The notes: a model not told the origin generated them from the letters alone. A stretch of DNA of 27,891 nucleotides from a bacterium (GCA_043803945.1 JAZDJN010000110.1:1-27891); one strand, 5' to 3'; shown: positions 3,701 to 19,650, numbered from the stretch's first letter. A program made the numbers and translations.

Positions 3701-3797
3701 TTCCAAATAAATGATTATTCGTTAGCTTCGTGAAATCAATAGTCTGTTCAGTTCTATATGAATAGATTCCTTTCAATGTCAAACTCAGCGGTATCAT
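708..3797 (-). CDS. sbcC: SbcC (Rad50-like SMC ATPase)
   Basis: Walker A GPVGSGKST, Q-loop IPQGQFQEFL, long coiled coil with central CPLCG zinc hook, signature LSGGQ, Walker B/D-loop FLDEGFGTLD and H-loop ISHV. ATGA overlap with the sbcD stop. Confidence 0.95.
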   Translation of the reverse strand: MIPLSLTLKGIYSYRTEQTIDFTKLTNNHLFGIFGPVGSGKSTILEAISYALFGETERLNSRDGRNYNMMNLKSRELFIDFKFKSGNKNQEIFRFTVKGTRDKKDFNIVKTLDRKGYKLQGESWIPLDCTTAEEIIGLSYLNFRRTIIIPQGQFQEFLQLGETDRTRMMKEIFNLNRYDLASKTDVIDKSTCSALDGVKGQLHQIGEIDEGLIEQESTHRNELVVGRGKLEGDLSVSEKIDKSMQDMKKLLDKVGEARRALDLLNQQSDNYRNRELLVERYELCQKNFPDILKQRNDAEAQISEALNRINENRKTITTLGKKIEQAELEFEQTRKEYEHRHDSEIMWKELESVGEVLTLDHQAQSLELQQGKLEKNIKAKTEKAAKLRIETKEMEATLKKSKKEMPNEKKLLEIKSWSDKYYSIKEAIDGLQILRDEHSENLKTLEMEKETLLADSKVLAYTTSADRKNSLGKLIETLKTIAKGCRLAAASKQNDIDTLRQTEVLESFAANLNEGDPCPLCGSEHHPHKYVGKGIKTQIDLLKKEKRKLEKDAEGLDEKTQEFVRLNSELENANKAFEKTLKDLEVKNASLTEQEGKYCWPDYSRDNIDKIDNELAHAESINSDLADLEENIEQSRTTIEEINTTISEAKDALQKVKEKSSELSGERKTLVQKIEHFKEESFNEWAPQSIKSEIEKLKGYVKDIEIRYQELDDSIRKMKERRSELSGVIDTEETNQATLQEKLKGINNDLTERMHSTGFDNLAAIQNILTNKIDTKKEKEAIRSFNEKVITSKEHLDKLEQEASESLYDRPKHLELQTKIDEIKESIRQVNQDIGRLESHIAELTKNLEKKHKLENEKDKLELKASDLAILKRLFRGGGFVNYASRIYLQNLCGVANQRYAQLTRQKLRLELRDDNSFQIRDFLNDGKTRSVKTLSGGQTFQASLSLALALADNIQQVAKTEENFFFLDEGFGTLDKESLTTVFEALKSLRKENRVVGVISHVEELQQEIDNYIKVKLDSEQGSIVSVS

Positions 3798-5017
3798 GCT
3801 TCCTCCGCTTTCATCACTTCACGCAACAAGCCCATCATCTGCTCGTTGGGTTCCTGACCCATTTCATGCTTGAAGTAATCTCTAAAAAGCTCCTCAACCG
3901 ATTTTGAAAGACTTGAAGAATCTACCCTCTCACTCACTCCGCTATCAGCATCGTTGATAACCGGAATAATGTCTACGATCCCGTCATGTGCTGAGTAAAT
4001 CGCCTTCCGTTCTTCCGCTGTCAGGTAGGTATCGCTTTCCATCGTCAGCTCAACAAGTGTGTTGGGATTTGATTCCAGCCACGCAATCGTTTCACCGACA
4101 GACTTGAATAGTTTTCTAAATACTTTCTTTCCCGAAACAAGCTCAACGCGTCTGTGTTGGGCGGGTTTGCCCGGTTCGAGGTCAACAATGGTAACAGATT
4201 TTGATTGCTCTGTGTCGTTCAGGCTATAAGAGAGGGGACTTCCACTATAAATTACAGGAGTATTCTCTCCCTGCATGACAATTCGCCGATGCAGGTGGCC
4301 GACAGCGACATATTGGACTTGAGGCGGGAGGTTATTTGTATAAATTGCCTGAGCACCACCGATGTCAAGTATCGGCTTCTCATCATCCGGCTCCGATAAT
4401 TCTTCACCGCCCTGTGCAGTCAAGAAGAGATGTGCAATCAGAATATTGATCCCTTGGGAGTCACAATGTTTTTCACAGATCTGCTGCCATCTCGTTTGTA
4501 GGATGGTTCGAAGTTGTTCCTCGGGATTTTCAATCCCCAGAAAAGACCTTAGACGCTTTTCATTTGCATAGGGTGTGATAACTATTCTTAGAGGAACTTC
4601 TTGGCGGGGCACCATTATTTCAATGAATCCTTCATCGGATCGTGCAACCGATAACCCGGAAGAAAGCGTAAATGGATGAACCTTCGTCAATGGATAGCCA
4701 ACGAAAATGATACCGCATTCACGGGCTAATGGATCTGGAGATTCAATTCTATCCGGGGAGTCGTGGTTTCCTGCAATTGCAATGACAATACGACTGCCTT
4801 CATTGGCGAGGCGTTTTAATGTGCGGTAAAATAGCTCAACGGATTCGACGGCAGGGTTGAAGGTATCAAATAAATCACCGGCAATAAGTATGGCATTTAC
4901 TTTTTCTCTTTCGGCAACCTGGCATATTTCATCAAGAACAGCCATTTGTTCAAGATGGCGGGAAATATTGCCGAGTGACTTACCGAGATGCCAATCGGAG
5001 GTGTGTAATAATTTCAT
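3794..5017 (-). CDS. sbcD: SbcD (Mre11-like metallophosphoesterase nuclease)
   Basis: Motifs HTSDWHLG, AGDLFD, AGNHDS, GHLH and YSGSPLSYS. RBS GGGAG upstream, and translationally coupled to sbcC. Confidence 0.95.
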   Translation of the reverse strand: MKLLHTSDWHLGKSLGNISRHLEQMAVLDEICQVAEREKVNAILIAGDLFDTFNPAVESVELFYRTLKRLANEGSRIVIAIAGNHDSPDRIESPDPLARECGIIFVGYPLTKVHPFTLSSGLSVARSDEGFIEIMVPRQEVPLRIVITPYANEKRLRSFLGIENPEEQLRTILQTRWQQICEKHCDSQGINILIAHLFLTAQGGEELSEPDDEKPILDIGGAQAIYTNNLPPQVQYVAVGHLHRRIVMQGENTPVIYSGSPLSYSLNDTEQSKSVTIVDLEPGKPAQHRRVELVSGKKVFRKLFKSVGETIAWLESNPNTLVELTMESDTYLTAEERKAIYSAHDGIVDIIPVINDADSGVSERVDSSSLSKSVEELFRDYFKHEMGQEPNEQMMGLLREVMKAEEA

Positions 5018-5247: not shown

Positions 5248-7275
5248 TCAATTCAATCCCATCGCTTTAAACGCTGCGTCAATAGGATCGGAATAAATGA
5301 CAAGGCTAAATTTCGAAACCAGATCGGTTGGTACTTTCCCGAGTTGCGACATATCAGAAGCGGGAATAAGCACTTTCTTTGCACCGCTGTCACTTGCTAC
5401 CTGAAGGAATTCACCAAGATTGTCTGATCCGATGATTGCACCGCCAATACTCATAGATCCCAATACAATCATCTGTGAAAGTAAAGAACGCTCAGTGATG
5501 CTCGAAATGATAGAAAGAAACATTGCCAATTCTAATCCTTTGACATTTCCGATACCATTGAGGTCGGTTGCCTTGATGTGAAATTCATATTCATTGAATT
5601 TCGCTACCTGTGTCACACGATTCAGGTTTGACCTTACATAGTTGACGGCTTCCTTGAGTTCTTCTTTTATGGAGGTACCACCACCGAACCCAGTATCACT
5701 CATTTTGCCGTTGCCAGGCATTTTCTGAATATCGAGACGGAATAGTCCTTTGTGCCCCGTATCTGTATTTTGTGCAATCGCATAAACAGTACCAGCAGGT
5801 AGATCTCCTTCTGGAATAAGTGACTTTCCACCGCTCTCAGGTACACCGACGAAATGCTCCTCGTTGTCTGCCAGGTCGATGTAGCTGAAATGGACATCGT
5901 AAAATTCCATGCCGCCAAGCTTCTTCAACTGCTCTTTGATTCTTCGCCTTCCAACAAGTGCATACTCGAGGCATCGCTTTACATCTTCTTTCGAGAACTT
6001 GCCATCGGGGAACAGTAATTTGACAAGACCGCTTACCGTTCGTTTCACTGCAATAGTGTCTCGTTGGTTAAGATCTTTCCCTAGCCGGAAGTGCTGTATT
6101 ATTGCATCAGAGAAATTGTGTTTCCTCAGCTCACGCAGACATTCAGCGAGATAGTCAGAAATAAATCCGAACGCATTGGTGAAAAATTCCGGTCTCATCT
6201 TAGGTACTTCCCAGCCCGGCAGATAATGATGGAACCGGTCAAAGAATGCAGTATCGATCATATCCTGCGGAAATGGTGCCAATAGATGGCTTGTCTTTAC
6301 CATATTCTCGACAGATGAATTTATATTGCCAACAAACACCATGGATGCATCAGCATTGATGCTTTCTTTTCCTCTGCTGAAAGATCCATTCGCCATGAAA
6401 CCTTTCATGATCTGAATGCCGTCTTTGTCCTTTAGATTAATTCCAGCAACTTCATCAAAAGCTACAACATCCCATAAACCAACTAAACCGACGGTACGTG
6501 TACTCATATTATAAAATAGATTCGCGACGGTCGTTTGTCCTCCAGAGATCAATATGGAATAGGGGGATATTTCATCATAGACGTACGATTTTCCTGTTCC
6601 TCTTGGGCCTAATTCGCAGATGTTATAGTTCTTCTCGACAAATGGAATCATGCGTGCAACAAGATGCCACTTCGTATCTTGATCGAGATTCACCGGTTCC
6701 ATGCCGATGCTTCGGCATATTATGTCAATCCATTCATCAAGAGTAAAATTCTGACGTGCGTTAAGATATTCGGAGAGATCCAATCCGGGCATTTGAATCG
6801 GTTTCAAATCGACAATTTTGAACGGTGAATCCTGAGAATTTTCATCAAAATAATACTCGATATTTAGAATGCACCAGATGCCTCCAGCGAGCAGCTTTTC
6901 ATATTTGCGGACGTATGATTCATCAACGATAATATTTCTAATATTTATGTTTGACAGCAATCCTTCGTAACGATCCTGTTTTTCATTCAGCTTGGCGGTC
7001 ACTTTGTCAATTATTTTATAGCGCCCCTTTTCCTTTATTTTCGACTTTACCTTTTCAGCTTCATCCGGTCGAACATAATTTTCGGCAAGAATCTGCTTTA
7101 CCTTCTGAATCCCCTCTTTGATAATAACCTCATCATCTGTTGCACAATACATTCCTAGAAGATATTCGAGAACATACACTGGTACGTTTGCCCCTTCGCG
7201 AATATGTTTGGTGAGATCTTTCCGAACAACTTTGCCCGGAAAGAATTGATTCAGTTTTTGATCTAGTGTATCCAT
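5248..7275 (-). CDS. brxL: BREX Lon-related AAA+ protein BrxL
   Basis: N-terminus FPGKVVRKDLT...NVPVYVLEYLLGMYC, Walker A GPRGTGKS, Walker B VAFDEV, DTAFFDRFH and a Lon-like C-terminal domain. Last gene of the BREX operon. Confidence 0.95.
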   Translation of the reverse strand: MDTLDQKLNQFFPGKVVRKDLTKHIREGANVPVYVLEYLLGMYCATDDEVIIKEGIQKVKQILAENYVRPDEAEKVKSKIKEKGRYKIIDKVTAKLNEKQDRYEGLLSNINIRNIIVDESYVRKYEKLLAGGIWCILNIEYYFDENSQDSPFKIVDLKPIQMPGLDLSEYLNARQNFTLDEWIDIICRSIGMEPVNLDQDTKWHLVARMIPFVEKNYNICELGPRGTGKSYVYDEISPYSILISGGQTTVANLFYNMSTRTVGLVGLWDVVAFDEVAGINLKDKDGIQIMKGFMANGSFSRGKESINADASMVFVGNINSSVENMVKTSHLLAPFPQDMIDTAFFDRFHHYLPGWEVPKMRPEFFTNAFGFISDYLAECLRELRKHNFSDAIIQHFRLGKDLNQRDTIAVKRTVSGLVKLLFPDGKFSKEDVKRCLEYALVGRRRIKEQLKKLGGMEFYDVHFSYIDLADNEEHFVGVPESGGKSLIPEGDLPAGTVYAIAQNTDTGHKGLFRLDIQKMPGNGKMSDTGFGGGTSIKEELKEAVNYVRSNLNRVTQVAKFNEYEFHIKATDLNGIGNVKGLELAMFLSIISSITERSLLSQMIVLGSMSIGGAIIGSDNLGEFLQVASDSGAKKVLIPASDMSQLGKVPTDLVSKFSLVIYSDPIDAAFKAMGLN

Positions 7276-7289
7276 AATGTTTTACCTGC

Positions 7290-9791
7290 TTATTCATCGA
7301 ATTCACTGCTGAATGAGATCAGCATACGATATCTAAATTCTTTGTATGGTCGGAGGAGCGTTGTGCCCTCAATTGGTTCTTCAAGTTTCAAAACGACTTC
7401 CTGATTGTTGTATTGCGTTGCATCGGAAACGAAAAGGAATGTATGTCGCTTTTCTCTGCCCGATGAGTCTTTTTCTGAGCTATCGAAGTTGATGTTTGTA
7501 ACGTCTGAAATAGCTTTTCCACTTTGCGAATAGAATCCTGCCCGTACTTGTCGAGCAAGCATTTTTTCACCAACAGCCTGGCGTTGGTAAAAGCTGATGC
7601 CATACTGATTACTGGTAATGTTTGTTGTTCCACCCAAGATGTCGATCTCAACATATTCAATATCGCTTTTTCGCTTCTTATTCACTTCCAGCACCGGTAA
7701 TACAATTTCCTGCAGACTAGCGCCGCCATGCACATATCGGCTGCCAGCACCCTGAACACGAAGCCGATTGATAGATTTTGGAATCAACACTTCAATGTCA
7801 CCCGACAAACCAAGTTGCTGATCTGTAAAATTCATCACTGTTGGACCACTATTGAGCTGTTTTCCAATGACAAATCTTCTACTACTCTTGAAAATATTTC
7901 CTTCAGGCATAAAGTCATTGAAGTCGCTTTCGTCAAGCCGACTATGCTGATAGAGGAATCCGTGATCAGCCGTAATGATCATGTTCGAACCATTCATGTT
8001 CGCTATCTGCTTGATGATCTTAATCATCATCTTGAATTCATCTTCAACAGCGCCGAATACTTTGTTTTCAGAGCTCTTATCATCTCCAACCTTGTCGATA
8101 CCGTTGTGGAAGATATAAATCACCTGATACGGTTTAATATTCTCCCTGCCAGCGTGTGCGTTCATTGCGAGGAAATCTTCAGAAGATATGGCCAGACTGC
8201 CAGGATGCGCTTTCTGAAGCACTTTGGTGCGACTCTCCATTCCTTTGGTGCTTGATCCATCTGCAAAGACCGTATCGCTTTCTTTATCAAACGAAAGCTC
8301 CTTGTGTGGTAACAACGCTGCCATTCCAAGTTGTGTGAATGACGGAATTACTCCGAGCACAGGATGAAGATCAGCGGTGTATCTATCTTCCTTCAGAATG
8401 ATCTCTCGTAGTTCAACCGCAGTTTCATACCGAAGCGCATCAGAGATGATGACAAATATCCTTTTCCCCTTCTCCACGTATTGCCGAATGTATCTGCTGT
8501 AGAATTCTCTTTGAAACTCGATTCCACCAATCTCCCAATCGCTTTGAGCATCTATTACTCTCTGCCATGAATCCGACAGTGGCAAGAGAAATGAATTGGT
8601 ATAAGCCTTCTCGATCTTTGTCGTTAAGTCTTTTAACAGGTTCTGATGCTCTGCATTCTCGCTGAAGTAAATATATTTCCTGTATAGGAAGTCGATTCTG
8701 AAGTGCTGTTTTGCGTATAGCAAAAAGCCGTCTTTCGCATTATCTGCTTTTAAATCTGCTTTTCGAATTTCATCCAGCAAGAGACTACCATGGCTTAATG
8801 CCTGATACATATTCTCGTAGTTCTTGTAAAAGAATTTCGTCTTGCGTTTATCGATCCATTCCTGAATCGACTGGTTGGACAGGGTTTCTTTCAGTAGATG
8901 GTCGCGTAAGCCGAGTAAAATAGTTTTATCGACTGCATCGAATGTGTTTACATCCAGCAGTTCTTCCGCGTGTAATGTTTGGATCTCACTTTCGATACCT
9001 AGTTCTGCTGCTGCACGATTACTTAATTGCTCGAATACTGTTTGCGATTTTGCATGTTCCTTCCAGCGGTTTACAAAAAGATAGGCATCCTTCGAAAGTG
9101 CCGGTATTCTCTTTGGCAACGCACGGTGATAATTACTTAAGAGAAGTTTTGCTAATAGATCTTTGATGCTTGTTTCGGTTGATGTGTAGCCGAATTTCTT
9201 TTCGAGATGCTCCCAGAAGAATGTGGCAAGTTGAAATCGCTTTATGGTATCGTACTTGATTGTCGCGTTTAGCAGAAGATCTTCAAAGAGAGCAAACAAC
9301 ACTTTGTCCCATTCCGGTTCACAGTCGCATATAACGGATAACATTTTGAGCCGTAATTTTGACTCTCGATCATCCGGCTCCAACAGTGCTTTTAATTTTT
9401 GAATACGATTGGCATCAGTAAAGAATTCTTCATGGTTCTGTATTACTGACTCAAATTCCGGCGGCAACCCGAGCTCCTGTAAATATAGAGAAGAGGGCTT
9501 TGCATGAAATTCATAATAAGCAAGATTCAAATCCAGCAACCAATTTAATGAATCGGCTGGTTTGGGCTTGAGTTGGTAAAGAAGGAATTTTGTATCGGGA
9601 TGTTCCACCAACACCTGATATTTGACGCCGAATTCATTGTTGTTGATAAACACTTTGTGAACATCGACAAACGAGAGGCTTTCAAACAGCTTTTGCATAT
9701 CGGCTTTGTCATCATACCAAAAGATCAGCCGGTGCTGTTGAAAGAGTTTCAGCAGGGCATCTTCAATTTTCTTCTGCACTTCAAACATCAT
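7290..9791 (-). CDS. pglZ: BREX-1 alkaline-phosphatase-fold protein PglZ
   Basis: RLIFWYD N-terminus, ISDALRYE, PSFTQLGMAALLPH, TADHGF and YVHGGASLQEI. 833 aa, positioned before brxL. Confidence 0.95.
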   Translation of the reverse strand: MMFEVQKKIEDALLKLFQQHRLIFWYDDKADMQKLFESLSFVDVHKVFINNNEFGVKYQVLVEHPDTKFLLYQLKPKPADSLNWLLDLNLAYYEFHAKPSSLYLQELGLPPEFESVIQNHEEFFTDANRIQKLKALLEPDDRESKLRLKMLSVICDCEPEWDKVLFALFEDLLLNATIKYDTIKRFQLATFFWEHLEKKFGYTSTETSIKDLLAKLLLSNYHRALPKRIPALSKDAYLFVNRWKEHAKSQTVFEQLSNRAAAELGIESEIQTLHAEELLDVNTFDAVDKTILLGLRDHLLKETLSNQSIQEWIDKRKTKFFYKNYENMYQALSHGSLLLDEIRKADLKADNAKDGFLLYAKQHFRIDFLYRKYIYFSENAEHQNLLKDLTTKIEKAYTNSFLLPLSDSWQRVIDAQSDWEIGGIEFQREFYSRYIRQYVEKGKRIFVIISDALRYETAVELREIILKEDRYTADLHPVLGVIPSFTQLGMAALLPHKELSFDKESDTVFADGSSTKGMESRTKVLQKAHPGSLAISSEDFLAMNAHAGRENIKPYQVIYIFHNGIDKVGDDKSSENKVFGAVEDEFKMMIKIIKQIANMNGSNMIITADHGFLYQHSRLDESDFNDFMPEGNIFKSSRRFVIGKQLNSGPTVMNFTDQQLGLSGDIEVLIPKSINRLRVQGAGSRYVHGGASLQEIVLPVLEVNKKRKSDIEYVEIDILGGTTNITSNQYGISFYQRQAVGEKMLARQVRAGFYSQSGKAISDVTNINFDSSEKDSSGREKRHTFLFVSDATQYNNQEVVLKLEEPIEGTTLLRPYKEFRYRMLISFSSEFDE

Positions 9792-10938
9792 ATTCCTGTC
9801 TGTCCTTTTCGATGAGTTGCTTTAATTCTTCGACGCTTGGCAATTGCACCAAATATTTACTCACAAATACTTCCATTGGTAATCCAGCCGTTGCATACTC
9901 AACAAGCGAATCGTTCTTGTTTGCACAGAGGATGATTCCCACCGGAGGATTATCTCCTTCTGTCATTTCGTTTTTCTTGTAATAGTTTAGATACAAATTC
10001 ATTTGACCTGCATCTGCATGGTCAAATGCTCCGATTTTTAAATCCACAAGAACATGGCACTTCAGAATGCGATGATAAAACACGAGGTCAATGAAGTAGT
10101 GGGTCGTATCGAACGTAATGCGTTTCTGTCTTGCCTCAAAACAAAATCCTCTTCCCAATTCCACTAAGAACTTTTGTAAATGAGTAATGATAGCTTGTTC
10201 AAGATCATTTTCACTGTATTCAGGTTTTTCCTCCAATTCCAGAAATTCCAACACATACGGATTTTTCACAATATCCATCGGGGCAACAACCAACATATCC
10301 TTTGCTTTTGCGATTACCGCTTCTTTATCTGTTGAAAGTCCGGTACGTTCGAACAAAAGCGTATTCATTGCTCTTTTAAGTTCCCGGACACTCCAATTGT
10401 TTTTAATTGCCTGGACTTCATAAAACGCTCTTTTTATTGGGGATTCAGCTTGAATAAGCTCGAGGAAATGCGTAAAGCTGAGACGCGAAATCAGGACTTC
10501 CGCGGGAAATGAGAGATTCGCTGTTTCATCGGTAGACTTCTTCGAGGGAGGCAATACAGCACTTTGCCCTTCGCCCAATTTGGTGTTCAGCGAATTCCAA
10601 ATCTCGCGATACTGATCTTGAAGAAAATGCAATTTGGGGGTCAGTGAACCCCAAATTTGCGGATAGCAATTATAAAATGTCCGACATGAGCGCAATGTCC
10701 GGTCATCAAGCCCTTTTACCCCTTTTTGTTTCAGCGTCGAAGCAACGTTCACCAGCAGTTTTTCCCCATACACCGCTCTGTCTTCTCCTTGCTGTTCGTA
10801 TTCTACCAGATAGCAGCCGATAAGCCAATTACGTATGGTAAGACTTTGATTGACCTGCTGAAGAGCATACCCTTTGGAGTAGGTACATGTGTTTTGTATG
10901 ATCTCGATAAGTTGATTGTATTGCATTGCCATAATCAC
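9781..10938 (-). CDS. DUF1016/YhcG-family PD-(D/E)XK nuclease-domain protein (start may be 10932 or 10926)
   Basis: NWLIGCYLVEYEQ, LSFTHFLEL, NWSVRELKR, KNPYVLEFL, ELGRGFCFEARQKRI, IDLVFYHRILKCHVLVDLK, GQMNLYLNY and NPPVGIILC. Overlaps the pglX stop and the pglZ start. Confidence 0.92.
   Translation of the reverse strand: MIMAMQYNQLIEIIQNTCTYSKGYALQQVNQSLTIRNWLIGCYLVEYEQQGEDRAVYGEKLLVNVASTLKQKGVKGLDDRTLRSCRTFYNCYPQIWGSLTPKLHFLQDQYREIWNSLNTKLGEGQSAVLPPSKKSTDETANLSFPAEVLISRLSFTHFLELIQAESPIKRAFYEVQAIKNNWSVRELKRAMNTLLFERTGLSTDKEAVIAKAKDMLVVAPMDIVKNPYVLEFLELEEKPEYSENDLEQAIITHLQKFLVELGRGFCFEARQKRITFDTTHYFIDLVFYHRILKCHVLVDLKIGAFDHADAGQMNLYLNYYKKNEMTEGDNPPVGIILCANKNDSLVEYATAGLPMEVFVSKYLVQLPSVEELKQLIEKDRQEYDV
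10577..10657. repeat. Two 27-nt imperfect palindromic units, 54 nt apart, inside the DUF1016 gene
   Basis: aatttggtgttcagcgaattccaaatc (10577-10603) and aatttgggggtcagtgaaccccaaatt (10631-10657) encode IWNSLNTKL and IWGSLTPKL. Confidence 0.7.
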
Positions 10939-13900
10939 TCTTCTTCTTTCTCCAATCCCTTGATTGGATAGAGCACTTCTTTGAACTTAATGTAATTCAC
11001 CTTTACACCATCATCGAGGTCAATTTCTATTTTCTTCGCTGCCACTTCATACAATGTCTTCTCGTATGCTTTCAATTCCTTCAACATTAATTCTATATCA
11101 GCGATCTTTTTATCTGCCTGTGTCCGTTCACGTGGGCTGGCGTTTTCACTTATTTTGATTTTAGAGAATGATTGCCTGTTCGCTTCCAGTTTACCGATAA
11201 AAGCGCGAAGATAATCGTTGAGGATCTTTGAAACTATATCTGGGCGGTAGCGGTGCATATAGATGAGAACATTGAATGTTCGTTTGGGTGAGCTGAACAT
11301 CCAATAGATCGGCCGCTTTTTGTAGCGCTTCACATGGTCGTTGTAAAAGTCTTTGACAAAGTATTTGCGGATATCTTTGCCGATGGCATCTTCGATGAAT
11401 TTCAGATTCTCATCGTAATGTTCGGTGCCGAATGTGACTTTAAGAAATTCCTTAAACCGACCAACGATATCGTCTGTAAAATATTCATCTTCAAGTATTG
11501 GGATGATGTTATCTTCATCTGGCATAAACGTCGGTTTAGGGATTTGTTTCAAATAGTCTTGAAGAGTTTCACCTTGATTCGCGAGAATGATGCCAGGCTT
11601 ATCGAGCGAATAGCGACCGAGCATACATCCGACAGCGTAGGAGAAGAATTCTTTCATCGTATCTGCGAGTAACAAGTCCTCTAACTCCTGCTCGGTTTTG
11701 TCGCCACCATAGCGGTAGTACGGGTTGCAGGTAAGGGTGATTTCGGGAAGCGGGACATCTGGTGAAAGCTCATCCTGCAGGCCATAGGCATCTATATAGA
11801 AACGATTGTTCTCCTTTTCTAATCGCTGCATCTCCAATGTCATCTCTTTGCAATTGGCACGAAGTTTAGTATAAGCTGCATTCAGAGTGTATTGATGTTG
11901 AGCAGGATCTAAAATCGAAAGGTGAGCAAATTCCCAAGAGGTTTCGTAAGAGTTCCAGTCTACCTGGGAAAGTCCAATCAACCGATCAATTGCTTTCAAC
12001 GTATTCTGTGAAGAAAAAACTCCGTATGGAATTTTTGCCAGTTCTCCGCTCGTAAAGCTCAATGTTGGACACAGAACACGTAAGAATTCATTTGCCAGAA
12101 CGGAGCAAAAGAGCCCAAGAGTATATCGAAGGCAGACATTATCTTCAGAAAATCCACACCTTCCAGTATCATCAAATAAAAAACCAACTGGACGGCAGCG
12201 AGCAGCGAATTTTCCAGAACTTATCTTTGACCAAGTTATCCCTTCTCTGAAATAATATGATTCATTTCGCACAGCAGATCTTGGTCTCCCATCTTCAAAC
12301 GAGTAATTTCTAATTTCTTGACCATTTTTCCACCAATTTACAACTATGCTATGATTCCCAAACCATTTTCTATATTCGCCACCGCTATGACATGGATACC
12401 ACTTCAAGCCATTGGTCTCTGTCTCTTCTAAAGATTTTGAACTAAGTCCAATTGAATTTTGGGCAACCTCATGCCAGATCCTCTGGAAGACCGTATTGTC
12501 ACCAGTTGACATACCCGCTTTCAATTCAATAATGCCACCTATTGGTTCATTATTAGAGAAACACTCCAAGAATTTTTCACTCACCCAATAAGCAATCGGA
12601 CTGCCAGGTATCTTCACGAACTTGGAAGAGGAGGTACGATAAAACCAACCGCACTTATGATTTCTTATCGCTTCCAATGCTTTCGGAGCTTGAATATCAG
12701 CTCCACGAAAATCAGAAAGTCGGACATACCCCCCCTTGAATCGTGGGTCATGTGAGTTCTGGATGGTGAATGTACAAATGGGGACAGTAGCACCTTCAAA
12801 ACCAGAATACTCAAGTTGGATGAGTGATGTGATGGTTTTTTTTTCAATCAAGAAGTTCCGCAATTCTTCATAAGATGAAATAAACATCCACACGAAGGGT
12901 GTCATAAACCCCAATTGACCTTTATCCATGGCAAGCTCAGTGTTCCTAACAACAAAGGCGGAGAATACGTCTGACTTCACATCAGGATATTTCTCTTGCA
13001 AGAATGATTTGAGTCTATCATTCATCCCCTTACCACCCATGTAAGGGGGATTTGTCACAACAACGTGGTATCGTTTGCTTAAGTATTCTGCCTGCCGGAG
13101 CGCTTTGAGAACGCCTTCAGTCAAGGCACTAAGAAACGCCTCTTGTATATGAGTCTCGTGTAGGGTGATTGCTTCTGCACTTGCCTCTTTCAATTGCACA
13201 GGAGAAAGGCGGGGCTGAACAAGAGAGCCAAAATTATCTGCTTCAGCGAACAAGTTAAGATCGTGTAGAAGGTCATCGCGGCGAATTCCGCCTTTGCATA
13301 ATTCGTCCAGAATCTTCTCCCATCCTTTATCTTCCCACTTCACATTACTGAACAAATCGTTCTTTGAACTTTTTGGATCTCTGGCCGTTGTGAAGTCGAT
13401 CTTCTCTAACACACAAATATTTGGCTGTATTGGCTTTTTGAAGAACCGGCTATACTTTTCTCTGGCAACCATTGTCAAAGCAAATGCTGACAATTCTCCG
13501 GCGCGTTCATCTATCTCGATACCAAACAAGTTTTTCGTCAGAATCTTGTTCGGTATCTCTGTCGGTTCGTATCCCTCTTCTTCGTAGATCAGATACAGCA
13601 ATTCAAAGGCATACACCAACATGTGTGCTGATCCACAGGCGGGGTCACAGAGTTTAATCTCTTCGGGTGAAGAAATGCGTAGGAAATCAGGGGTGAGGGT
13701 ACAGGGATTAGGAGTTAGGGATGAGGAGATAGTTTTTGTCTGAGTGATGAGAGCATTTTGGAGATCTCGGTCAGCAGGGAGAGAATCTGCGCGGATTGTT
13801 CCAGGCTTAAGTACCCCAGCCGTTGCGCAATCATGATTTGCGTTTCCGCTTCCGCTTTGGATCCCTGGGCGATCGAAATGAAGTTCCTGAACTCCGCCGT

Positions 13901-14933
13901 CGATTTCCTTGAATGGCCCTCCGCTATGTTCGATGGAATCGACACCACCGCCCGCCGGAGCTGGCTGGTCAAACCATACAGTTCCTCCTTCGGAAATAGC
14001 TTGGTTGCCCGATAGACCATCTCCACCAATTCCATCGCCTTCTGCCACACGACCAAGTCCTGATAGCTTTTCACTTCCTGCATCTTCAACTCCTTTCTTT
14101 TCTCTAACCACTACGCCCTCGCCCCTATCCCCTACATAAAACTGCATCTTATCAATCAGCTTGGAATTCGGACGGTTCAGCATCCAGAGTCTGCCAAGGG
14201 AATTCTCTACGAGATAGCGCACAATCCAATTCGGTGTAAATAATTGTGTTGCAGCAGGAATGTCCTCTGGCGTTATCTTCTTGTTCTTTGCCAGTCCTTC
14301 GAACACTTCATCCTTCTTTTCTGAAATGTAGAACTGATACATCCAGCCGATAATTTCTACCTGTTTACAATCTTCATCACTCATTCCATCTCGAATATCG
14401 GTGACGATAGAATACTCGCTCAAAAGATCATCGGGGAGAAGCAACTCGGTATAATCAGCAATCCGCTCAAACATAAAGGGCATCGTAGTGTGCCATGCAT
14501 TGCAGGATGCCACAAGGAGTATTTTATATGCTTCGGTCTGCGCATCAGCAACAGAAGTACGACTATCCAGCAGATCATTCAGACGCTTTCGGTCTAATGT
14601 GAGCACGTCATCTATATGCCCTGCTTTAGCCTCCTGCAGTAGCTCCGGTATTGTGCTGCCTGCTGCAGGTGTCACAATCTTCGGAACAGTGTAACCATTG
14701 GCATCCATAAACCGGAATGCCATCAAACGGTTAAACCACGTGTAAGCAACACGCTCGATTACTTGTTCTTTGCCATATTTCGCAATTTCCAGCTTCAGCT
14801 TGTTCACCTGCTCTCGTTTACCACGCAGTTCGGCGGTATCGTGCGACAGCACATACTCCAGCTTCCTGCCGACCAGATCGAGCAGTTTTACACGGGCTTC
14901 GCGAGCGAACTTCTTGAGTGTGTTGGTATTCAT
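10935..14933 (-). CDS. pglX: BREX-1 adenine methyltransferase PglX with a 148-codon in-frame insertion
   Basis: Likely start MNTNTLKKFAREAR (ATG 14933, AGGA upstream). Motifs VAYTWFNRL, IPAATQLFTPNWIVRYLVENSLGRLW, motif I DPACGSAH, motif IV TNPPYMG, YKKRPIYW and IDLDDGVKVNY. A foreign segment lies at 13689-14132. Confidence 0.95.
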   Translation of the reverse strand: MNTNTLKKFAREARVKLLDLVGRKLEYVLSHDTAELRGKREQVNKLKLEIAKYGKEQVIERVAYTWFNRLMAFRFMDANGYTVPKIVTPAAGSTIPELLQEAKAGHIDDVLTLDRKRLNDLLDSRTSVADAQTEAYKILLVASCNAWHTTMPFMFERIADYTELLLPDDLLSEYSIVTDIRDGMSDEDCKQVEIIGWMYQFYISEKKDEVFEGLAKNKKITPEDIPAATQLFTPNWIVRYLVENSLGRLWMLNRPNSKLIDKMQFYVGDRGEGVVVREKKGVEDAGSEKLSGLGRVAEGDGIGGDGLSGNQAISEGGTVWFDQPAPAGGGVDSIEHSGGPFKEIDGGVQELHFDRPGIQSGSGNANHDCATAGVLKPGTIRADSLPADRDLQNALITQTKTISSSLTPNPCTLTPDFLRISSPEEIKLCDPACGSAHMLVYAFELLYLIYEEEGYEPTEIPNKILTKNLFGIEIDERAGELSAFALTMVAREKYSRFFKKPIQPNICVLEKIDFTTARDPKSSKNDLFSNVKWEDKGWEKILDELCKGGIRRDDLLHDLNLFAEADNFGSLVQPRLSPVQLKEASAEAITLHETHIQEAFLSALTEGVLKALRQAEYLSKRYHVVVTNPPYMGGKGMNDRLKSFLQEKYPDVKSDVFSAFVVRNTELAMDKGQLGFMTPFVWMFISSYEELRNFLIEKKTITSLIQLEYSGFEGATVPICTFTIQNSHDPRFKGGYVRLSDFRGADIQAPKALEAIRNHKCGWFYRTSSSKFVKIPGSPIAYWVSEKFLECFSNNEPIGGIIELKAGMSTGDNTVFQRIWHEVAQNSIGLSSKSLEETETNGLKWYPCHSGGEYRKWFGNHSIVVNWWKNGQEIRNYSFEDGRPRSAVRNESYYFREGITWSKISSGKFAARCRPVGFLFDDTGRCGFSEDNVCLRYTLGLFCSVLANEFLRVLCPTLSFTSGELAKIPYGVFSSQNTLKAIDRLIGLSQVDWNSYETSWEFAHLSILDPAQHQYTLNAAYTKLRANCKEMTLEMQRLEKENNRFYIDAYGLQDELSPDVPLPEITLTCNPYYRYGGDKTEQELEDLLLADTMKEFFSYAVGCMLGRYSLDKPGIILANQGETLQDYLKQIPKPTFMPDEDNIIPILEDEYFTDDIVGRFKEFLKVTFGTEHYDENLKFIEDAIGKDIRKYFVKDFYNDHVKRYKKRPIYWMFSSPKRTFNVLIYMHRYRPDIVSKILNDYLRAFIGKLEANRQSFSKIKISENASPRERTQADKKIADIELMLKELKAYEKTLYEVAAKKIEIDLDDGVKVNYIKFKEVLYPIKGLEKEEE
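13687..13728. repeat. 3' arm (mRNA sense) of heptamer repeats flanking the nested gene
   Basis: Six imperfect 7-mers on the + strand: tcagggg tgagggt acaggga ttaggag ttaggga tgaggag. Confidence 0.8.
13715..14083 (-). CDS. Four helix bundle protein (23S rRNA IVP / Avd-like family), nested out of frame within pglX
   Basis: MQEVKSYQDLVVWQKAMELVEMVYRATKLFPKEELYGLTSQLRRAVVSIPSNIAEG...EFRNFISIAQGSKAEAETQ carries the family signatures FPxxExYGLTSQxRRA and SIPSNIAEG. RBS AAGGAG (14090-14095) is 6 nt before the ATG, and the TAA is at 13715-13717. Confidence 0.93.
   Translation of the reverse strand: MQEVKSYQDLVVWQKAMELVEMVYRATKLFPKEELYGLTSQLRRAVVSIPSNIAEGHSRKSTAEFRNFISIAQGSKAEAETQIMIAQRLGYLSLEQSAQILSLLTEISKMLSSLRQKLSPHP
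14101..14135. repeat. 5' arm (mRNA sense) of heptamer repeats, inverted relative to 13687-13728
   Basis: Five imperfect 7-mers on the - strand: gtagggg atagggg cgagggc gtagtgg ttagaga. Confidence 0.8.
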
Positions 14934-14957
14934 TGTTCCTGGTTCTGTGGAATATGC

Positions 14958-15052
14958 ACATGTCCACGCCTTGGACCTATATTCATAACGTGTCCAAACA
15001 GGTGACAAATATGGACACGTGTGTTGGAACGTGTCCATGATGTGGACACGTT
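14958..15052. repeat. Cluster of three REP-like hairpins between fic and pglX
   Basis: acatgtcca..tggacctat (14958-14980, imperfect), acgtgtcca..tggacacgt (14988-15020, 9 bp) and aacgtgtcca..tggacacgtt (15028-15052, 10 bp, overlapping the fic stop). Confidence 0.85.
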
Positions 15053-16139
15053 ATTTTGTGAGCAAAGCATAGAGTTTTTTGTTCAAATAGAGATTTTCCT
15101 TGCCCACTTTTTGTTTTTTAAGAATACCAGCTTCTTCTAATGCTTTCAGATACACCGCAGCAGTTTTACGCTCTGCAAGACCGGCATCGACAAGGAATTG
15201 CCCTTTTGTATAGGGCTGCTGGAAAATCAATTCGATCAATTCTTTTGAATAGACTTTTGCAGGAAGTGTTTTCTTTGCCGATTCGAGTGTCTCCTGCAAC
15301 AGTGATCGGATATTCACAATACGCTTCGAGGTCATCGCAGCAGTCGATTCAACTGCATCAAGCATGAACAAGACCCAAGGCTCCCAGCTATTCTTCTCCG
15401 TTACTGCACGCAGTAATCGGTAGTAATCACCTTTATGTTCAATAATATATTTGCTCAGATATAACACAGGAAGGGTGAGAAGACCTTCTTTTACAAGGAA
15501 GAGAATGTTGATAATTCTTCCAGTCCTGCCATTTCCATCAAAGAAAGGATGAATTGCTTCGAACTGATAATGAATCAGGGCAAGCTTCACGAGAGGGTCA
15601 AATTGATTCTCCGAGTGAATGAAGATTTCCATGTCTTTCAGTTTTTGTCGAATCAATGCTTCTCCCTCGGGTGGCGTATAAATTACTTTTCCTGTATGTT
15701 TGTCTCCGACTGCAGTCCCGGGTAAGTTACGAATGCCCGCACTGTTTTCTTTTATTGTCTGGACCAGCGAAACGAAAAGATTCGTCGTCAAGAGAGGTTT
15801 CTTCTTTAACGTATTGAATCCCGTCCACAATGCCTCTCTGTACCGGAGTACTTCTTTTGTCGTTGGATCGATATTGGTCGTATCAGCCGTGATCGCCCGA
15901 AATAGTGCATCATGAGTGGTGATTATATTTTCTATCTCAGAACTTGCTTGTGCTTCCTGAAGAACGACAGTATTAACAAGCATCGATTGATTTGGGATTG
16001 TTTCACCCAATCCCTTAAGTTCTGCGAGGGATCTCCCAGCGGAGATAGCTTTTTTCAATACTGCATTTGTTTCTATTTCGTTCTTTGGGGGCAGAGATGG
16101 CAAGTCATTGTATGGTATAAGTGGATTAAAGATTGTCAT
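15051..16139 (-). CDS. Fic family protein (class II-type AMPylase with N-terminal inhibitory helix and C-terminal wHTH-like region)
   Basis: Catalytic motif HPFFDGNGRTGR and inhibitory motif SSEIEN. Lies between brxC and pglX. Confidence 0.93.
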   Translation of the reverse strand: MTIFNPLIPYNDLPSLPPKNEIETNAVLKKAISAGRSLAELKGLGETIPNQSMLVNTVVLQEAQASSEIENIITTHDALFRAITADTTNIDPTTKEVLRYREALWTGFNTLKKKPLLTTNLFVSLVQTIKENSAGIRNLPGTAVGDKHTGKVIYTPPEGEALIRQKLKDMEIFIHSENQFDPLVKLALIHYQFEAIHPFFDGNGRTGRIINILFLVKEGLLTLPVLYLSKYIIEHKGDYYRLLRAVTEKNSWEPWVLFMLDAVESTAAMTSKRIVNIRSLLQETLESAKKTLPAKVYSKELIELIFQQPYTKGQFLVDAGLAERKTAAVYLKALEEAGILKKQKVGKENLYLNKKLYALLTK

Positions 16140-16152
16140 GCAAGTTCTTTCT

Positions 16153-19100
16153 CTATAGGGAAATTCGTTTATCCTCTTTAATCAATTTAAGATATGCTTC
16201 TTTCAAGGCTTGCACATACTCTTCAACATCCCGTTCTGTTTCCAACGACGGTTTTGCAAACTTCACTTTTACAGAATCTTTGCGAACGTACGCCACCTTC
16301 GTATACTGAACACCAGTTCCTGTTTGTGTTGCACCGGTCGAAGCAGGCACTGCTAAGCGCATCATCAGATCAATTTGTCTGTGGTACAGATCGTCTTGAG
16401 CAAAACTCTTCTTTGCACGCAGATTACCGATGAATCGTTCGTGATTGACTTCCTCGATAGACTCAATAAACGGTTGCAGCACTTCTGCCTGTTGAGATGG
16501 GGATAGCTTCTTGAACTCTTCATACGACTTCAACTTCTCTATCGTCTCTTTAACTATCTGAACGCTTTCAATTCGCTCTTTGTCAATCTTTGTTTTCACT
16601 TCACCACGCAGGGTATCAAGTGCTTGCTTGCCAGTCTGGATTAGATTGCCTTTGTAAGGAACAATACTCTCTTTCACAGCAGTCAACGGCTCTATTCCAG
16701 CCTTATCGATATAGTTGAAATTCGCATTCTCGCTATCCAGGTAGGATAGAATGTTTTCGTAGATATCCTTTTGCGGTCCCTTCATGAATTTCTTGATACC
16801 GTCGATAATGCTTTCCTTGTCAACTAACAATTCTTCACCGAATTGATCGAGAGCATTGAAGAAATAGGGATGTTCTTTCTCGCTAACCAATCTTAATCTA
16901 TTCAACGCCTCGCCGAGCGAATTGAGAAACGCATAACGTTCGCGCTGTGAGTATATATCCGCGACATCACCGACCTCGACCGTAATGCGCTGTTTAAAAT
17001 ATTTCGATACTTCCTTTGGTTCATTCCCCAGATTCGCTTCGTTGAAGTATTCCTGATGGAAGTCCTTCAGTTTCTTCAGTTTCGAGGTACTGATATCTTC
17101 TTCCACATCGATGATCGTATTTGGATATTCACGATTGCTCTGCAATGCTTCCAGCACTGCCCTGTCATTGAGCGTATTGCCATCCAATTTTAGACTGACC
17201 TTGTTCCGTTTATAGAGCTTTGCAATGAGGCACAGAACCGCCATCTGGTACCAACCATATGGTCTCGCAGCAAATGTCTCTATAAGCACCTTGATCGTCG
17301 TCCGTTCATGATTCGCCTTATTGCGTGTGATTCTATTTAAGACTTCCAGTTCCACTTCAGACAGCGTGTCTTTAAATAACACGTCGTCCTGGCTCCAGAT
17401 GATTTTCTTTATATGATCTTCCGTGAACTCAACAGTCAGCATTTTCAGATTTGTGTAGGTCGTCCTTATCAATTGCTGAACGCCTGCATGTATCTTTATC
17501 CGAGGATCCTTGGAAGAGATGTCAACTACCTCAGAGCCATTGAGATACATCTTAGCATCGCCGATAAGATCTTTCAGCCGTCCCATCACATTTCGTTTTC
17601 TTATTGTGTTGTATTCTTTCTTCTCTGTCAGTATGTTTATCTTTGACGGATCAAGATTTTGGGAATAGGTCGTTTGGTAATATTTCTCAGTCTTTATGAC
17701 AAGTCTTAATTCATCAAACAAACGTGGATCTTGGGGAAGATGAACAACAAGGTCGGTATTTCCGAATGATTTAAGAGAAACGTTTGCAGTTGCGATTTCG
17801 TTTTGATTTAGCGGCGTAATGAAATTCACATAGAAATCGCGTTCTTTACTGACAATGTTATCATCAATTTTTCTGCCGTACTCATAAATTTGATTATTGG
17901 AATCGAGTTTTACTTTGCTGTCACGAAGTATTTCCGTAAATATCATTTCGGAAAGGAGATTGCCCGGTGCTTTTGGATCAATATCCGTGCTTTTTATTTC
18001 GTTCTCTACATCCTTCTCTTGATTCGTTAAATACTCGTACGTATCGCCAACCCTTTGGATAAATGTCTGAGTCTCCAATAGATTGAGCGCTTCCTGAATA
18101 CTCTTTTGGAAGGAAACGAGATCAACTTCGAATGACGGGAAGAGCAGAATAGCAATATTGTTCAGAGAAGCCTTGAATTCTTTTATATACTTCACAAGGA
18201 ACAATGCCTTCAAAACTTCGACAGCTAAGGGATTAGTGATGTTTCGTTCGCCCTCCAGGACATCCGTCTGAATATTACTTTGAAGAATATCTCGAATACC
18301 ATCGAACATCTGAGCGTAATGCACGATCTCGCTCATATCCTTTTGTGCGTTTTGTTTTGCCACCTGCTGGAAGACCCCGAGCATCGATCTCTCACCCACA
18401 GATTGGTGTTTCCCCATAAACGCATTATGAACAGACAATGCTTTTATCGAGGCTTGAAAAAGTTCAAATTGATATGGTATGAAAGGATATGTCAATTGGA
18501 AATGTTCTTCATTTTTGTAGACACCATACTGTCTTGAATTATCGCCGAATTCAAAGAGTGTCCTGAAGTTGTTTTTTTCTTTTTCAAATATACCAGACAA
18601 CAGCTTTGCAGATGGTTCATTCTTTGCAAGTAATCGCTTTTGTATTACTTCATCAGCATTGGAGCTTGTAAGAGGCAGCTTGATCGAGAACCGTGCTTGA
18701 ATACGGGAGAAGTCGTGCGCTTGTTGTTTTGCCAATTCACCAATGGTGGCATTCAGGTCATTCTGCGATGTAACGATCATGAATGCCTGGCCTTTACACG
18801 AACTTGATAATGTCTCTGCTAACGTTTGGAGACTCAGCATCAAACGAACATCTTCTGCAATAAATTGTCCCACTTCATCCACACAGAAAATAAGCCTGAA
18901 TCCAGCCGGTTGTTTCGCAATAAAGCTTTTCACCAGAGTTACAAAACCTGCAATATCCAATTTATAACTATTGCGTAAATCGTTGAAATTCTTCTTCGCT
19001 TCTTCCTCGGTTATTTTGTTGAGTTCCGCGAATGCCTTTGCGAATTCACTTTGATTAAGCAGAATGTGTCTTCGCCCCGTGTACCACTCTTTCTTGTTTA

Positions 19101-19650
19101 GTTTTAAGTAGATCTCTTTGAACTGATCGTACTGCCCCGCATCATCAATATGCCGCTCTATCTCTGCTACAGCAGGGGCTTGTCCATAATAACCTTGGTA
19201 CTCATTGAAGACTTTTAAAAAGACCGCAAGGATCGGATCCACTGAAGTAAGATTGCCGATACCGTCAGCTTTTTGCGCTATGTTAAATAAGAGCGTCTTT
19301 GCAGGGATTTTCAAAGATTTCTTAATGTTCGCATTGAGTTCAAAATCGTTTTGAATTTTCTCAGCGAACATTTCGCCGCACGTCGTACCATCCAGTGATC
19401 GGTTCTCCAAGACAAGTGACAACATTTTCAATAAATGGGATTTTCCGGAGCCGAAGAAACCAGATATCCAGATACTGTCGTTATATCCCTTTTTTACATA
19501 TTCCTGAAAGAATGATCCGAGATGCTTTTCGATCTCTTTCGTCACAACATATTCGTCAACTTCCTGAAGGAGATATTCTTCATCGTCCGCTTTGATAACA
19601 CCTTCGATGTGGCGAGAGATGTCTTTGAGATACAGGTCTTGTTGTTTCAT
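16153..19650 (-). CDS. brxC: BREX P-loop ATPase BrxC
   Basis: IEGVIKAD, EVDEYVVT, Walker A WISGFFGSGKSH, Walker B VDEVGQFI, VTSQ, SRIQARF, EVIQKRLL, YPFIPYQF and RPYGW. 1165 aa. Confidence 0.95.
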   Translation of the reverse strand: MKQQDLYLKDISRHIEGVIKADDEEYLLQEVDEYVVTKEIEKHLGSFFQEYVKKGYNDSIWISGFFGSGKSHLLKMLSLVLENRSLDGTTCGEMFAEKIQNDFELNANIKKSLKIPAKTLLFNIAQKADGIGNLTSVDPILAVFLKVFNEYQGYYGQAPAVAEIERHIDDAGQYDQFKEIYLKLNKKEWYTGRRHILLNQSEFAKAFAELNKITEEEAKKNFNDLRNSYKLDIAGFVTLVKSFIAKQPAGFRLIFCVDEVGQFIAEDVRLMLSLQTLAETLSSSCKGQAFMIVTSQNDLNATIGELAKQQAHDFSRIQARFSIKLPLTSSNADEVIQKRLLAKNEPSAKLLSGIFEKEKNNFRTLFEFGDNSRQYGVYKNEEHFQLTYPFIPYQFELFQASIKALSVHNAFMGKHQSVGERSMLGVFQQVAKQNAQKDMSEIVHYAQMFDGIRDILQSNIQTDVLEGERNITNPLAVEVLKALFLVKYIKEFKASLNNIAILLFPSFEVDLVSFQKSIQEALNLLETQTFIQRVGDTYEYLTNQEKDVENEIKSTDIDPKAPGNLLSEMIFTEILRDSKVKLDSNNQIYEYGRKIDDNIVSKERDFYVNFITPLNQNEIATANVSLKSFGNTDLVVHLPQDPRLFDELRLVIKTEKYYQTTYSQNLDPSKINILTEKKEYNTIRKRNVMGRLKDLIGDAKMYLNGSEVVDISSKDPRIKIHAGVQQLIRTTYTNLKMLTVEFTEDHIKKIIWSQDDVLFKDTLSEVELEVLNRITRNKANHERTTIKVLIETFAARPYGWYQMAVLCLIAKLYKRNKVSLKLDGNTLNDRAVLEALQSNREYPNTIIDVEEDISTSKLKKLKDFHQEYFNEANLGNEPKEVSKYFKQRITVEVGDVADIYSQRERYAFLNSLGEALNRLRLVSEKEHPYFFNALDQFGEELLVDKESIIDGIKKFMKGPQKDIYENILSYLDSENANFNYIDKAGIEPLTAVKESIVPYKGNLIQTGKQALDTLRGEVKTKIDKERIESVQIVKETIEKLKSYEEFKKLSPSQQAEVLQPFIESIEEVNHERFIGNLRAKKSFAQDDLYHRQIDLMMRLAVPASTGATQTGTGVQYTKVAYVRKDSVKVKFAKPSLETERDVEEYVQALKEAYLKLIKEDKRISL

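Follow-up and report, generated by a model that had tools for sequence, protein, structure and literature searches.

Intervening sequences (IVSs) of ribosomal RNA (rRNA) and the S23p genes associated with them have, to our knowledge, had no accepted function or mode of spread for more than 30 years. In Coxiella, the 23S rRNA IVS harbors an S23p open reading frame (ORF) together with terminal inverted repeats that form a 28-bp stem; tandem GACAGAT heptamers are found upstream of the ORF within this stem, with strain-to-strain differences in number, and the first of these repeats is a site of RNase III cleavage (as given in portions of PMC4990558). Insertions of another kind are found in Rickettsia, where palindromic elements (RPEs) inserted in frame into ORFs become part of the translated host protein, which apparently survives the insertion (portions of PMC10969869). 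The present analysis concerns a 27,891-nt stretch of bacterial DNA (GCA_043803945.1 JAZDJN010000110.1:1-27891, hereafter the window), in which pglX, the methyltransferase gene of a bacteriophage exclusion (BREX-1) operon, contains an IVS-type cassette, namely a small gene of the 23S rRNA IVS protein family flanked by two complementary arrays of 7-nt units. It is rather likely that this cassette is translated through as part of PglX, with nothing excised, and that the heptamer arms are the cassette's own ends.

Anatomy of the Cassette in pglX

The host gene, the cassette and its parts are the following, all on the minus strand:

10935..14933, minus: BREX-1 pglX (adenine methyltransferase), open across the cassette; assigned from NF033452, PDB 8c45 and homologue alignment
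13689..14135, minus: whole inserted cassette, 447 nt, host codons V302-P450, between invariant Y301 and D451
14087..14135, minus: 5' heptamer array, seven units (nnAGnnn), purine-/G-rich on the coding strand, best autocorrelation period 7
14081..14094, minus: Shine-Dalgarno-like AGGAG plus nested ATG, forming with a downstream segment a predicted inverted pair (14 nt, 79% complementary)
13715..14083, minus: nested four-helix-bundle gene, 122 aa (P0002), 23S rRNA IVS protein family (PF05635, TIGR02436, NF008911)
13684..13732, minus: 3' heptamer array, seven units (CTnnnnn), C-rich, complementary to the 5' array (from sequence, register scan and autocorrelation)
13679..13683, minus: host CCUAC (codons of the conserved FLR), predicted to pair with GUAGG at 14135-14131 and thus to lengthen the stem (single minimum-free-energy fold)

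The minus-strand frame that includes pglX (10935-15038) is stop-free throughout its 1367 codons, and the likely start of pglX is M36, with which the first residue of the homologues aligns. Within this frame, the cassette abuts Y301 and D451, both invariant in nine aligned PglX sequences, so that the arms do end where PglX similarity stops and resumes, as a preliminary description of this DNA had proposed. At the cassette site, insert-free PglX reads ..MEYYIKPEQAETDFLRI.. (alignment A1), and the empty site in locus L020 reads MEYYIKPEQEETDFLKI. No target-site duplication was seen by eye at the cassette junctions. A homologous insert is located at this site in the PglX homologues P0006, P0091, and P0107 (1321-1343 aa), among the 119 other matches listed. 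A word-indexed search with the host-frame insert (residues 300-452) returned only P0006 and the window's own gene call, because the host-frame peptide is too divergent for this type of search.

The complementary heptamer arrays announced around the nested gene are borne out, with seven units on each side. Read on the minus strand from 14135, the 5' units are gtagggg, atagggg, cgagggc, gtagtgg, ttagaga, aaagaaa, and ggagttg, and the host-frame peptide of this array is VGDRGEGVVVREKKGV. The 3' units are ctatctc, ctcatcc, ctaactc, ctaatcc, ctgtacc, ctcaccc, and ctgattt; they overlap the last five codons of the nested gene and its TAA (13717-13715), and the last unit extends into host codons D451-F452. 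Between the arrays, the nested protein matches Pfam PF05635 with an E-value of 1.2e-41 (141.6 bits, cut-off 33.8), NCBIfam TIGR02436 with 133 bits (cut-off 24) and NF008911 with 151.5 bits. Its ATG is preceded, 6 nt upstream, by AGGAG, and such a site is present in 21 of 28 copies of the cassette embedded in host genes. The pglX frame corresponds to the +2 frame of the nested gene.

Two other identities were considered and rejected. Regarding a self-splicing intron or an intein, no group I or group II intron match was found in Rfam at E<=1, and the host frame contains only methylase Pfam domains; over 12500-15500, the only Rfam hit is a chance-level one to snoRNA sR44 (19.2 bits against a gathering score of 45), and no rRNA match was obtained. 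Regarding the Avd protein of diversity-generating retroelements (DGRs), the nested protein scores below the cut-offs of NF033474 DivGenRetAVD (28.1 bits, cut-off 80) and PF22296 bAvd (32.4 bits, cut-off 40), its neighbors are BREX genes, and there is no adjacent reverse transcriptase (RT) gene.

Five further genes of the same family (36-41% identity) are found in the same genome, with different purine-rich 7-nt units upstream. Their contigs and coordinates are:

C62:7222-7533, own-genome paralogue
C65:12083-12412, own-genome paralogue
C65:13878-14210, own-genome paralogue
C104:93727-94047, own-genome paralogue
C87:62677-62856, own-genome paralogue

The C62 paralogue contains GACAGAT, the unit reported for the Coxiella IVS.

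Proposed Read-Through of the Host Frame

The relation between nested gene and host frame was compared in two sets, namely 80 genome loci encoding relatives of the small protein (50-77% identity) in species-representative genomes of many phyla, and a separate set of 80 metagenome loci. By tblastn with an insert-free PglX (P0005) over the genome loci, PglX parts were found around 19 of the 80, and 17 cassettes lie between PglX parts; the cassette of L023 is located just after the PglX stop and that of L026 just before the PglX start. Of these 17, 16 have an open host frame whose register is the same on either side of the cassette. Nine of the 80 metagenome cassettes are found in PglX-like methylases, eight of them open. 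Both sets taken together, 26 of 160 cassettes are inside PglX-like genes, and the host frame runs open and in register through 24 of the 26. Without exception, the host frame of these 24 coincides with the +2 frame of the nested gene; a +1 frame free of stops over the nested gene occurs at only one of the 160 loci. The nested gene of L030 is truncated to 54 codons and the host frame is still open.

Three insertion sites can be distinguished. Site A, that of the window, is the linker just upstream of the S-adenosylmethionine-binding motif; site B is near residues 949-967 of P0005; and site C, found in more distant methylases of the Eco57I/MmeI type, follows the motif I helix. In both L012 (1-300 and 2495-2851) and L014, a single PglX gene harbors cassettes at sites A and B, with the +2 frame open through both.

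The openness of the +2 frame is reflected in the nested genes themselves. None of 18 embedded genes has a stop in this frame; the 61 non-embedded genes average 4.7, and only three of them have none. When the codons of the embedded genes are shuffled among synonyms, the +2 frame is left stop-free with P values from 0.000 to 0.18 (geometric mean 0.01). For the arrays, counted per 70 nt, embedded copies have 1.25 and 2.61 stop triplets in the two frames other than that of the host, and non-embedded copies about 1.5 in every frame. Pairwise comparison of the 28 embedded copies yields a mean identity of 0.60 for the nested frame and of 0.31 for each of the other two (host and +1), and in 378 of 378 pairs the nested frame has the higher value. 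Since the nested frame is conserved and the host frame is not, the small protein is the conserved product, the host peptide being constrained only against stops. The preference for the +2 frame may arise because third-position synonymous choices suffice to avoid its stops, whereas avoiding those of the +1 frame would cost common Leu, Val, Ile, and Met codons. In an AlphaFold2 model of PglX residues 36-700 (40-sequence alignment, predicted template modeling score 0.71), the cassette part has a predicted local distance difference test score (pLDDT) of 25-35 and is without secondary structure, while the flanks reach a pLDDT of at least 90; the host peptide encoded by the window's cassette is predicted to be disordered.

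It can be hypothesized from these features that the arms represent the ends, made up of inverted heptamer arrays, of an IVS-type cassette holding a PF05635 gene with its own Shine-Dalgarno site. Ribosomes translating pglX would continue from the 5' array into the nested gene, read in +2, and out through the 3' array, thereby adding about 149 unconserved, predicted-disordered residues to PglX as an extra linker. The small protein would be made separately, from the internal ribosome-binding site on the same operon transcript, and the arms would be needed for the spread or processing of the cassette and not for restoring pglX. Read-through accounts for the open frame, the fixed +2 relation and the unconserved host peptide; excision accounts for none of them. 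Judging from the sequences compared, the window's cassette would come from a lineage with a stop-free +2 frame, found mostly inside DNA-methyltransferase genes, and we infer that the long PglX is made and working and that the nested protein is expressed.

It could also be argued that the insertion killed pglX and that the open frame reflects chance or recency. For the window's gene alone, synonymous shuffles leave the +2 frame stop-free with P = 0.177. None of 100 related genomes carries the window's PglX, which makes the locus a recent import, and the public, automated gene call for pglX (P0003) is truncated to 953 aa, beginning inside the cassette (13794-14081 region), although the frame is open over 1367 codons. 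A dead pglX is nevertheless extremely unlikely in view of the embedded relatives (nested protein 50-79% identical), 24 of 26 of which keep the frame open where about seven stops would be expected over gene and arrays. Moreover, the TAG of a unit would hit the pglX frame only in units 3 and 6 of the 5' array, and exactly these two are without the T, reading GAG and AAG. The other BREX genes are all intact, and the PglX domains on either side of the cassette fold confidently in the AlphaFold2 model.

Several observations weigh against read-through and have to be set beside these counts. The P value of 0.177 for the window's own gene is not rare, so that the argument rests on the relatives, and the truncated public call mentioned above does not follow the long frame. 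Among the relatives, the PglX flanks of L025 are in different frames, the host frame of L088 closes 14 nt past the nested gene with no downstream PglX part found, and the host gene of L010 is frameshifted about 1.2 kb downstream of the cassette. The term embedded was itself partly defined by an open frame, the count independent of this definition being the 24 of 26 with PglX flanks. Embedded copies are mutually related and do not represent independent events; a quick tree of 79 small proteins is poorly resolved, with stars on only 8 of its 76 inner branches, and it mixes copies from sites A and B with non-embedded ones without separating them reliably. Lastly, the segment at the cassette site is resolved, and not disordered, in the crystal structure of Salmonella PglX (portions of PMC11341690).

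Two side observations concern the history of embedded copies. In the poorly resolved tree, the end branches of embedded copies measure about 0.06-0.3, and those of many non-embedded copies 0.3-0.97; the short embedded branches could come from dual-coding constraint or from recent spread. In L008 (1627-4809), PglX matches P0005 at 93% identity before the cassette and at 52% after it, a contrast that could correspond to module exchange at the cassette site or to the usual divergence of the recognition domain.

Host Genes of the Cassette Lineage

Hosts other than PglX include the PF01555 DNA methylases of L071 and L134. A profile of the host-frame peptide, run against 1.84 billion proteins, matches 736 representative clusters at E<=0.001 and 289 at E<=1e-10. 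Among the best 150 of the 736 clusters, 83 are at least 400 aa long with the peptide inside, and of the 67 of those 83 that were scanned, 20 have an Eco57I methylase domain, 9 an N6_N4_Mtase domain, and a small number other domains, e.g., response regulators or histidine kinases. Because PglX-borne copies supplied most of the sequences in the profile, the host spectrum so obtained leans towards relatives of those copies.

A more far-reaching proposal, that the cassette lineage is a mobile element specialised for the reading frames of defence methyltransferases and affects the host gene beyond being tolerated, appears quite unlikely. If it were true, PglX at three sites and PF01555 methylases would be its hosts, and its own gene would be overprinted for read-through in the +2 frame. 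Ribosomes translating the host gene could, for instance, unmask the nested ribosome-binding site and thus couple synthesis of the small protein to translation of PglX; alternatively, the 7-nt units could act as a frame-shifting on/off switch or as recombination points shuffling PglX modules.

One insert-free protein deserves mention with regards to the insertion sites. PglX P0004 displays 7-aa-periodic stretches, QLSVVSH QLSVFSH and SNQLSVI SNQ, exactly at sites A and B (alignment A1, columns 431-452 and 1211-1232). At the protein level these look like heptamer arrays without a gene, which may be scars or seeds of the cassette.

Pairing of the Heptamer Arms

In the 23-nt register put forward in the preliminary description, the arms form 17 Watson-Crick pairs and 3 G-U pairs with 3 mismatches, exactly as claimed. 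Its suggestion of sliding registers is likewise supported by an ungapped scan, which peaks at offsets 5, 12, 19, 26, 33, and 40, the best ungapped register having 31 Watson-Crick and 3 G-U pairs out of 51. The pairing is of moderate strength. The arm duplex has an energy of -41.6 kcal/mol, a value matched by 0 of 2000 like-spaced random window pairs and by 0 of 2000 random partners of the 5' arm. Dinucleotide shuffles of both arms reach it in 37 of 1000 cases because one arm is G-rich and the other C-rich. The window's flank pair is equalled by 3 of 20 foreign 3' flanks. The main arms were not reported as an inverted pair by a general repeat search, and Tandem Repeats Finder detected only 13703-13732, with a period of 14.

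The pairing had been thought to be best in the mRNA orientation, and this could not be upheld. In the same 23-nt register, the opposite strand has 17 Watson-Crick and 2 G-U pairs, the latter gained because two of the three mismatches are C-A, and the antisense duplex is the more stable one (-48.5 vs. -41.6 and -58.0 vs. -52.1).

The stem had further been proposed to loop out the whole gene, as the stems closing rRNA IVSs do. The anatomy agrees with this proposal and the long stem is present in both the minimum-free-energy (MFE) and the centroid fold of the 481-nt region; the energy of this fold is ordinary with respect to shuffled controls (z = -1.39, equalled by 10 of 100 shuffles), and the loop-out role is weakened by the open frames of 24 of 26 embedded copies. 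In this explanation, a stem in the pglX mRNA, processed by RNase III, would loop out the nested gene and thereby free a small mRNA or lower or split pglX expression. The predicted stem has 26 pairs within about 30 nt and, outside these, a 6-bp helix, the arms of 47 of 79 relatives are complementary, and a heptamer-bearing stem associated with the same protein family is cut by RNase III in Coxiella 23S rRNA (portions of PMC4990558). The nested AGGAG and AUG are paired in the predicted fold with 13710-13723 (MFE positions 57-70), a segment that includes the stop codon of the nested gene; the stem could in this way control translation of that gene. On the other hand, cutting by RNase III without ligation would sever and destroy the pglX message. 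Removal of the block from the mRNA is also disfavored by the open host frame, since selection for openness would then be pointless. In addition, translating ribosomes would probably cover the 5' arm before the 3' arm is transcribed, and no Rfam family matches 12500-15500. Selection at the RNA level moreover predicts a strand bias; in the window the antisense duplex is the more stable, and among relatives there is no bias, as detailed below. A looping stem is accordingly an unlikely explanation, compared with read-through of a cassette whose arms are its own ends.

Heptamer Arms Across Relatives

Flanks long enough for comparison are available for 79 of the 80 genome relatives. Autocorrelation is strongest at a period of 7 in the upstream flanks of 65 of these 79 and in the downstream flanks of 64. 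Homologous genes do have complementary arms: in 47 of the 79 no in-locus control, out of about 25-30, is as stable as the flank pair; in 31 the pair outdoes every one of 20 foreign 3' flanks, where chance would give about 4; and in 47 it outdoes at least 18 of the 20. The units vary between loci and match within a locus, e.g., TAGGGG/CCCCTA, CAGTGGC/GCCACTG, GACAGGG/CCCTGTC, and GGTGACA/TGTCACC. Among the 47 significant arm pairs, the sense duplex is the more stable in 22 and the antisense duplex in 25 (p = 0.77). Given this absence of strand bias, the complementarity fits an RNA stem and a hairpin of single-stranded DNA equally. In the own-genome paralogues, examined in fixed windows, period 7 is found upstream in 4 of 5 and downstream in 1 of 5, and none of the five arm duplexes goes beyond 40 genome controls in this crude fixed-window test.

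Individual loci display some variations on this arrangement. In L010 (2872-3004), a second G-rich array follows the nested gene and is itself followed by the C-rich array, giving a composite or nested hairpin. The upstream arrays of L024 and L037 are near-perfect, e.g., (GGGGACA)n on the coding strand, and fit a G-quadruplex motif by eye.

The arrays may, possibly if rather doubtfully, be binding sites of the encoded, ring-forming protein, serving autoregulation, protection, or mobilisation; if so, the arms would be complementary simply because the same sites are placed in inverted order. Such a role is compatible with the read-through of a cassette bounded by its own arms. The unit core nnAG[T/G]GG / CC[A/C]CTnn is kept within the subfamily over 50-79% protein identity, distant paralogues of the same genome (36-41% identity) have different units, and the orientation is fixed, the G-rich array always being upstream of the gene. 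Pentamer formation is known from relatives of the family (Lin et al., 2006, cited in portions of PMC4990558). Gene and arrays are co-inherited, however, so that common descent alone may explain the shared units, and the arms of the own-genome paralogues are weak.

A slippage switch can also be envisaged. As 7 is not a multiple of 3, the gain or loss of a unit would shift the pglX frame and might render BREX phase-variable. L025 (21-2148), a site A copy, is in line with this idea: it has long, near-perfect GGGCAGT arrays, flanks in frames +0 and +1, and a cassette open in +2. The unit number also differs between Coxiella strains (portions of PMC4990558). In the window, the units are degenerate and no two adjacent ones are identical, which speaks against slippage; of the 26 embedded copies, L025 alone shows the predicted pattern, for which any indel or error of assembly would be sufficient. 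Such a switch is thus very unlikely, and a cassette translated in a fixed frame remains the preferred account of the window.

The Host Gene and its BREX-1 Operon

The assignment of the host gene is firm. PglX matches NCBIfam NF033452 BREX_1_MTaseX with 1381 bits (cut-off 500) in two stretches, the second of which aligns residues 450-1354 with profile positions 300-1209. The match to Salmonella PglX (PDB 8c45, E 1e-252) is similarly divided, residues 75-303 aligning with 65-282 of the chain and residues 457-1362 with 303-1217. Eco57I and N6_Mtase domains (Pfam) are present, which gives a full-length PglX with an N6-adenine methylase core.

The BREX-1 operon around pglX is otherwise intact. On the same strand and at full length are found brxC (16153-19650; BrxC, 989 bits), pglZ (7290-9791; PglZ type A, 771 bits), and brxL (5248-7275; BrxL, 1076 bits). 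A scan of 13400-14500 gave 0 promoter-like and 0 terminator-like sites. Among sequencing runs, only four, all of DNA, match 0.05 of the sampled words, and no RNA run is listed. Between brxC and pglX lies a gene for a Fic-type protein adenylyltransferase (15051-16139, minus; NF046030, 492.6 bits, cut-off 550). Between pglX and pglZ, and overlapping both by a few bases, a 385-aa ORF (9781-10938, minus) has no NCBIfam match at E<=1e-5. Directly downstream of the operon are sbcC and sbcD (708-5017, minus), whose product is a hairpin-cleaving nuclease.

Implications and Comparison with Known Systems

The window copy suggests, at the level of sequence, that a unit made of a gene and heptamer arms can sit in a protein-coding gene without breaking its frame, and across the lineage as a whole the cassette gene and the host protein share DNA in two frames. 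This gives a concrete model for how a cassette can be tolerated, while its marked preference for DNA methyltransferases of phage defence as hosts calls for explanation. A practical warning for annotation also follows: PglX proteins with 120-150 extra residues, or split or truncated calls, may be intact genes with a passenger, and cassette-bearing methylase genes are probably often mis-called as truncated. No link between the PF05635 family and BREX or PglX was found in article texts, although supplementary files may bear on it; the text of a 2026 BREX survey, as far as covered by a term search, contains neither "four-helix" nor "Avd" (PMC12839542).

With regards to DGRs, the nested protein belongs to the same four-helix-bundle superfamily as Avd (PF22296 bAvd, E 1.4e-7); unlike in a DGR, the four RT genes of the genome are located on other contigs (C21, C7, C98, and C64). 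Some DNA methyltransferase genes are phase-variable through short tandem repeats within the ORF, with a unit length that is not a multiple of three. Unlike these, the cassette has degenerate repeats that form an inverted pair and enclose a gene.

The cassette resembles RPEs and intragenic miniature inverted-repeat transposable elements, as far as these are described in the portions of the literature used here, in being palindromic-ended, inserted in frame, and recurrent in many host genes. It differs from RPEs, which are about 150 bp long and are without a gene of their own, by its length of 447 bp and its conserved 122-aa gene in another frame (dual coding), and by its hosts, which are mainly DNA methyltransferases. 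The closest likeness is to the ORF-bearing IVSs of 23S rRNA (Coxiella burnetii helix 45, Leptospira, and others, in the same partial sources), with which it shares an S23p/PF05635 gene in the loop of a stem, terminal inverted repeats, and heptamers. Unlike these, the window's cassette occupies codons 302-450 of pglX and not a 23S rRNA helix, and it is open in the host frame, so that excision is unnecessary. The IVS-type anatomy is thus already known; the location in pglX and the proposed read-through are not part of it.

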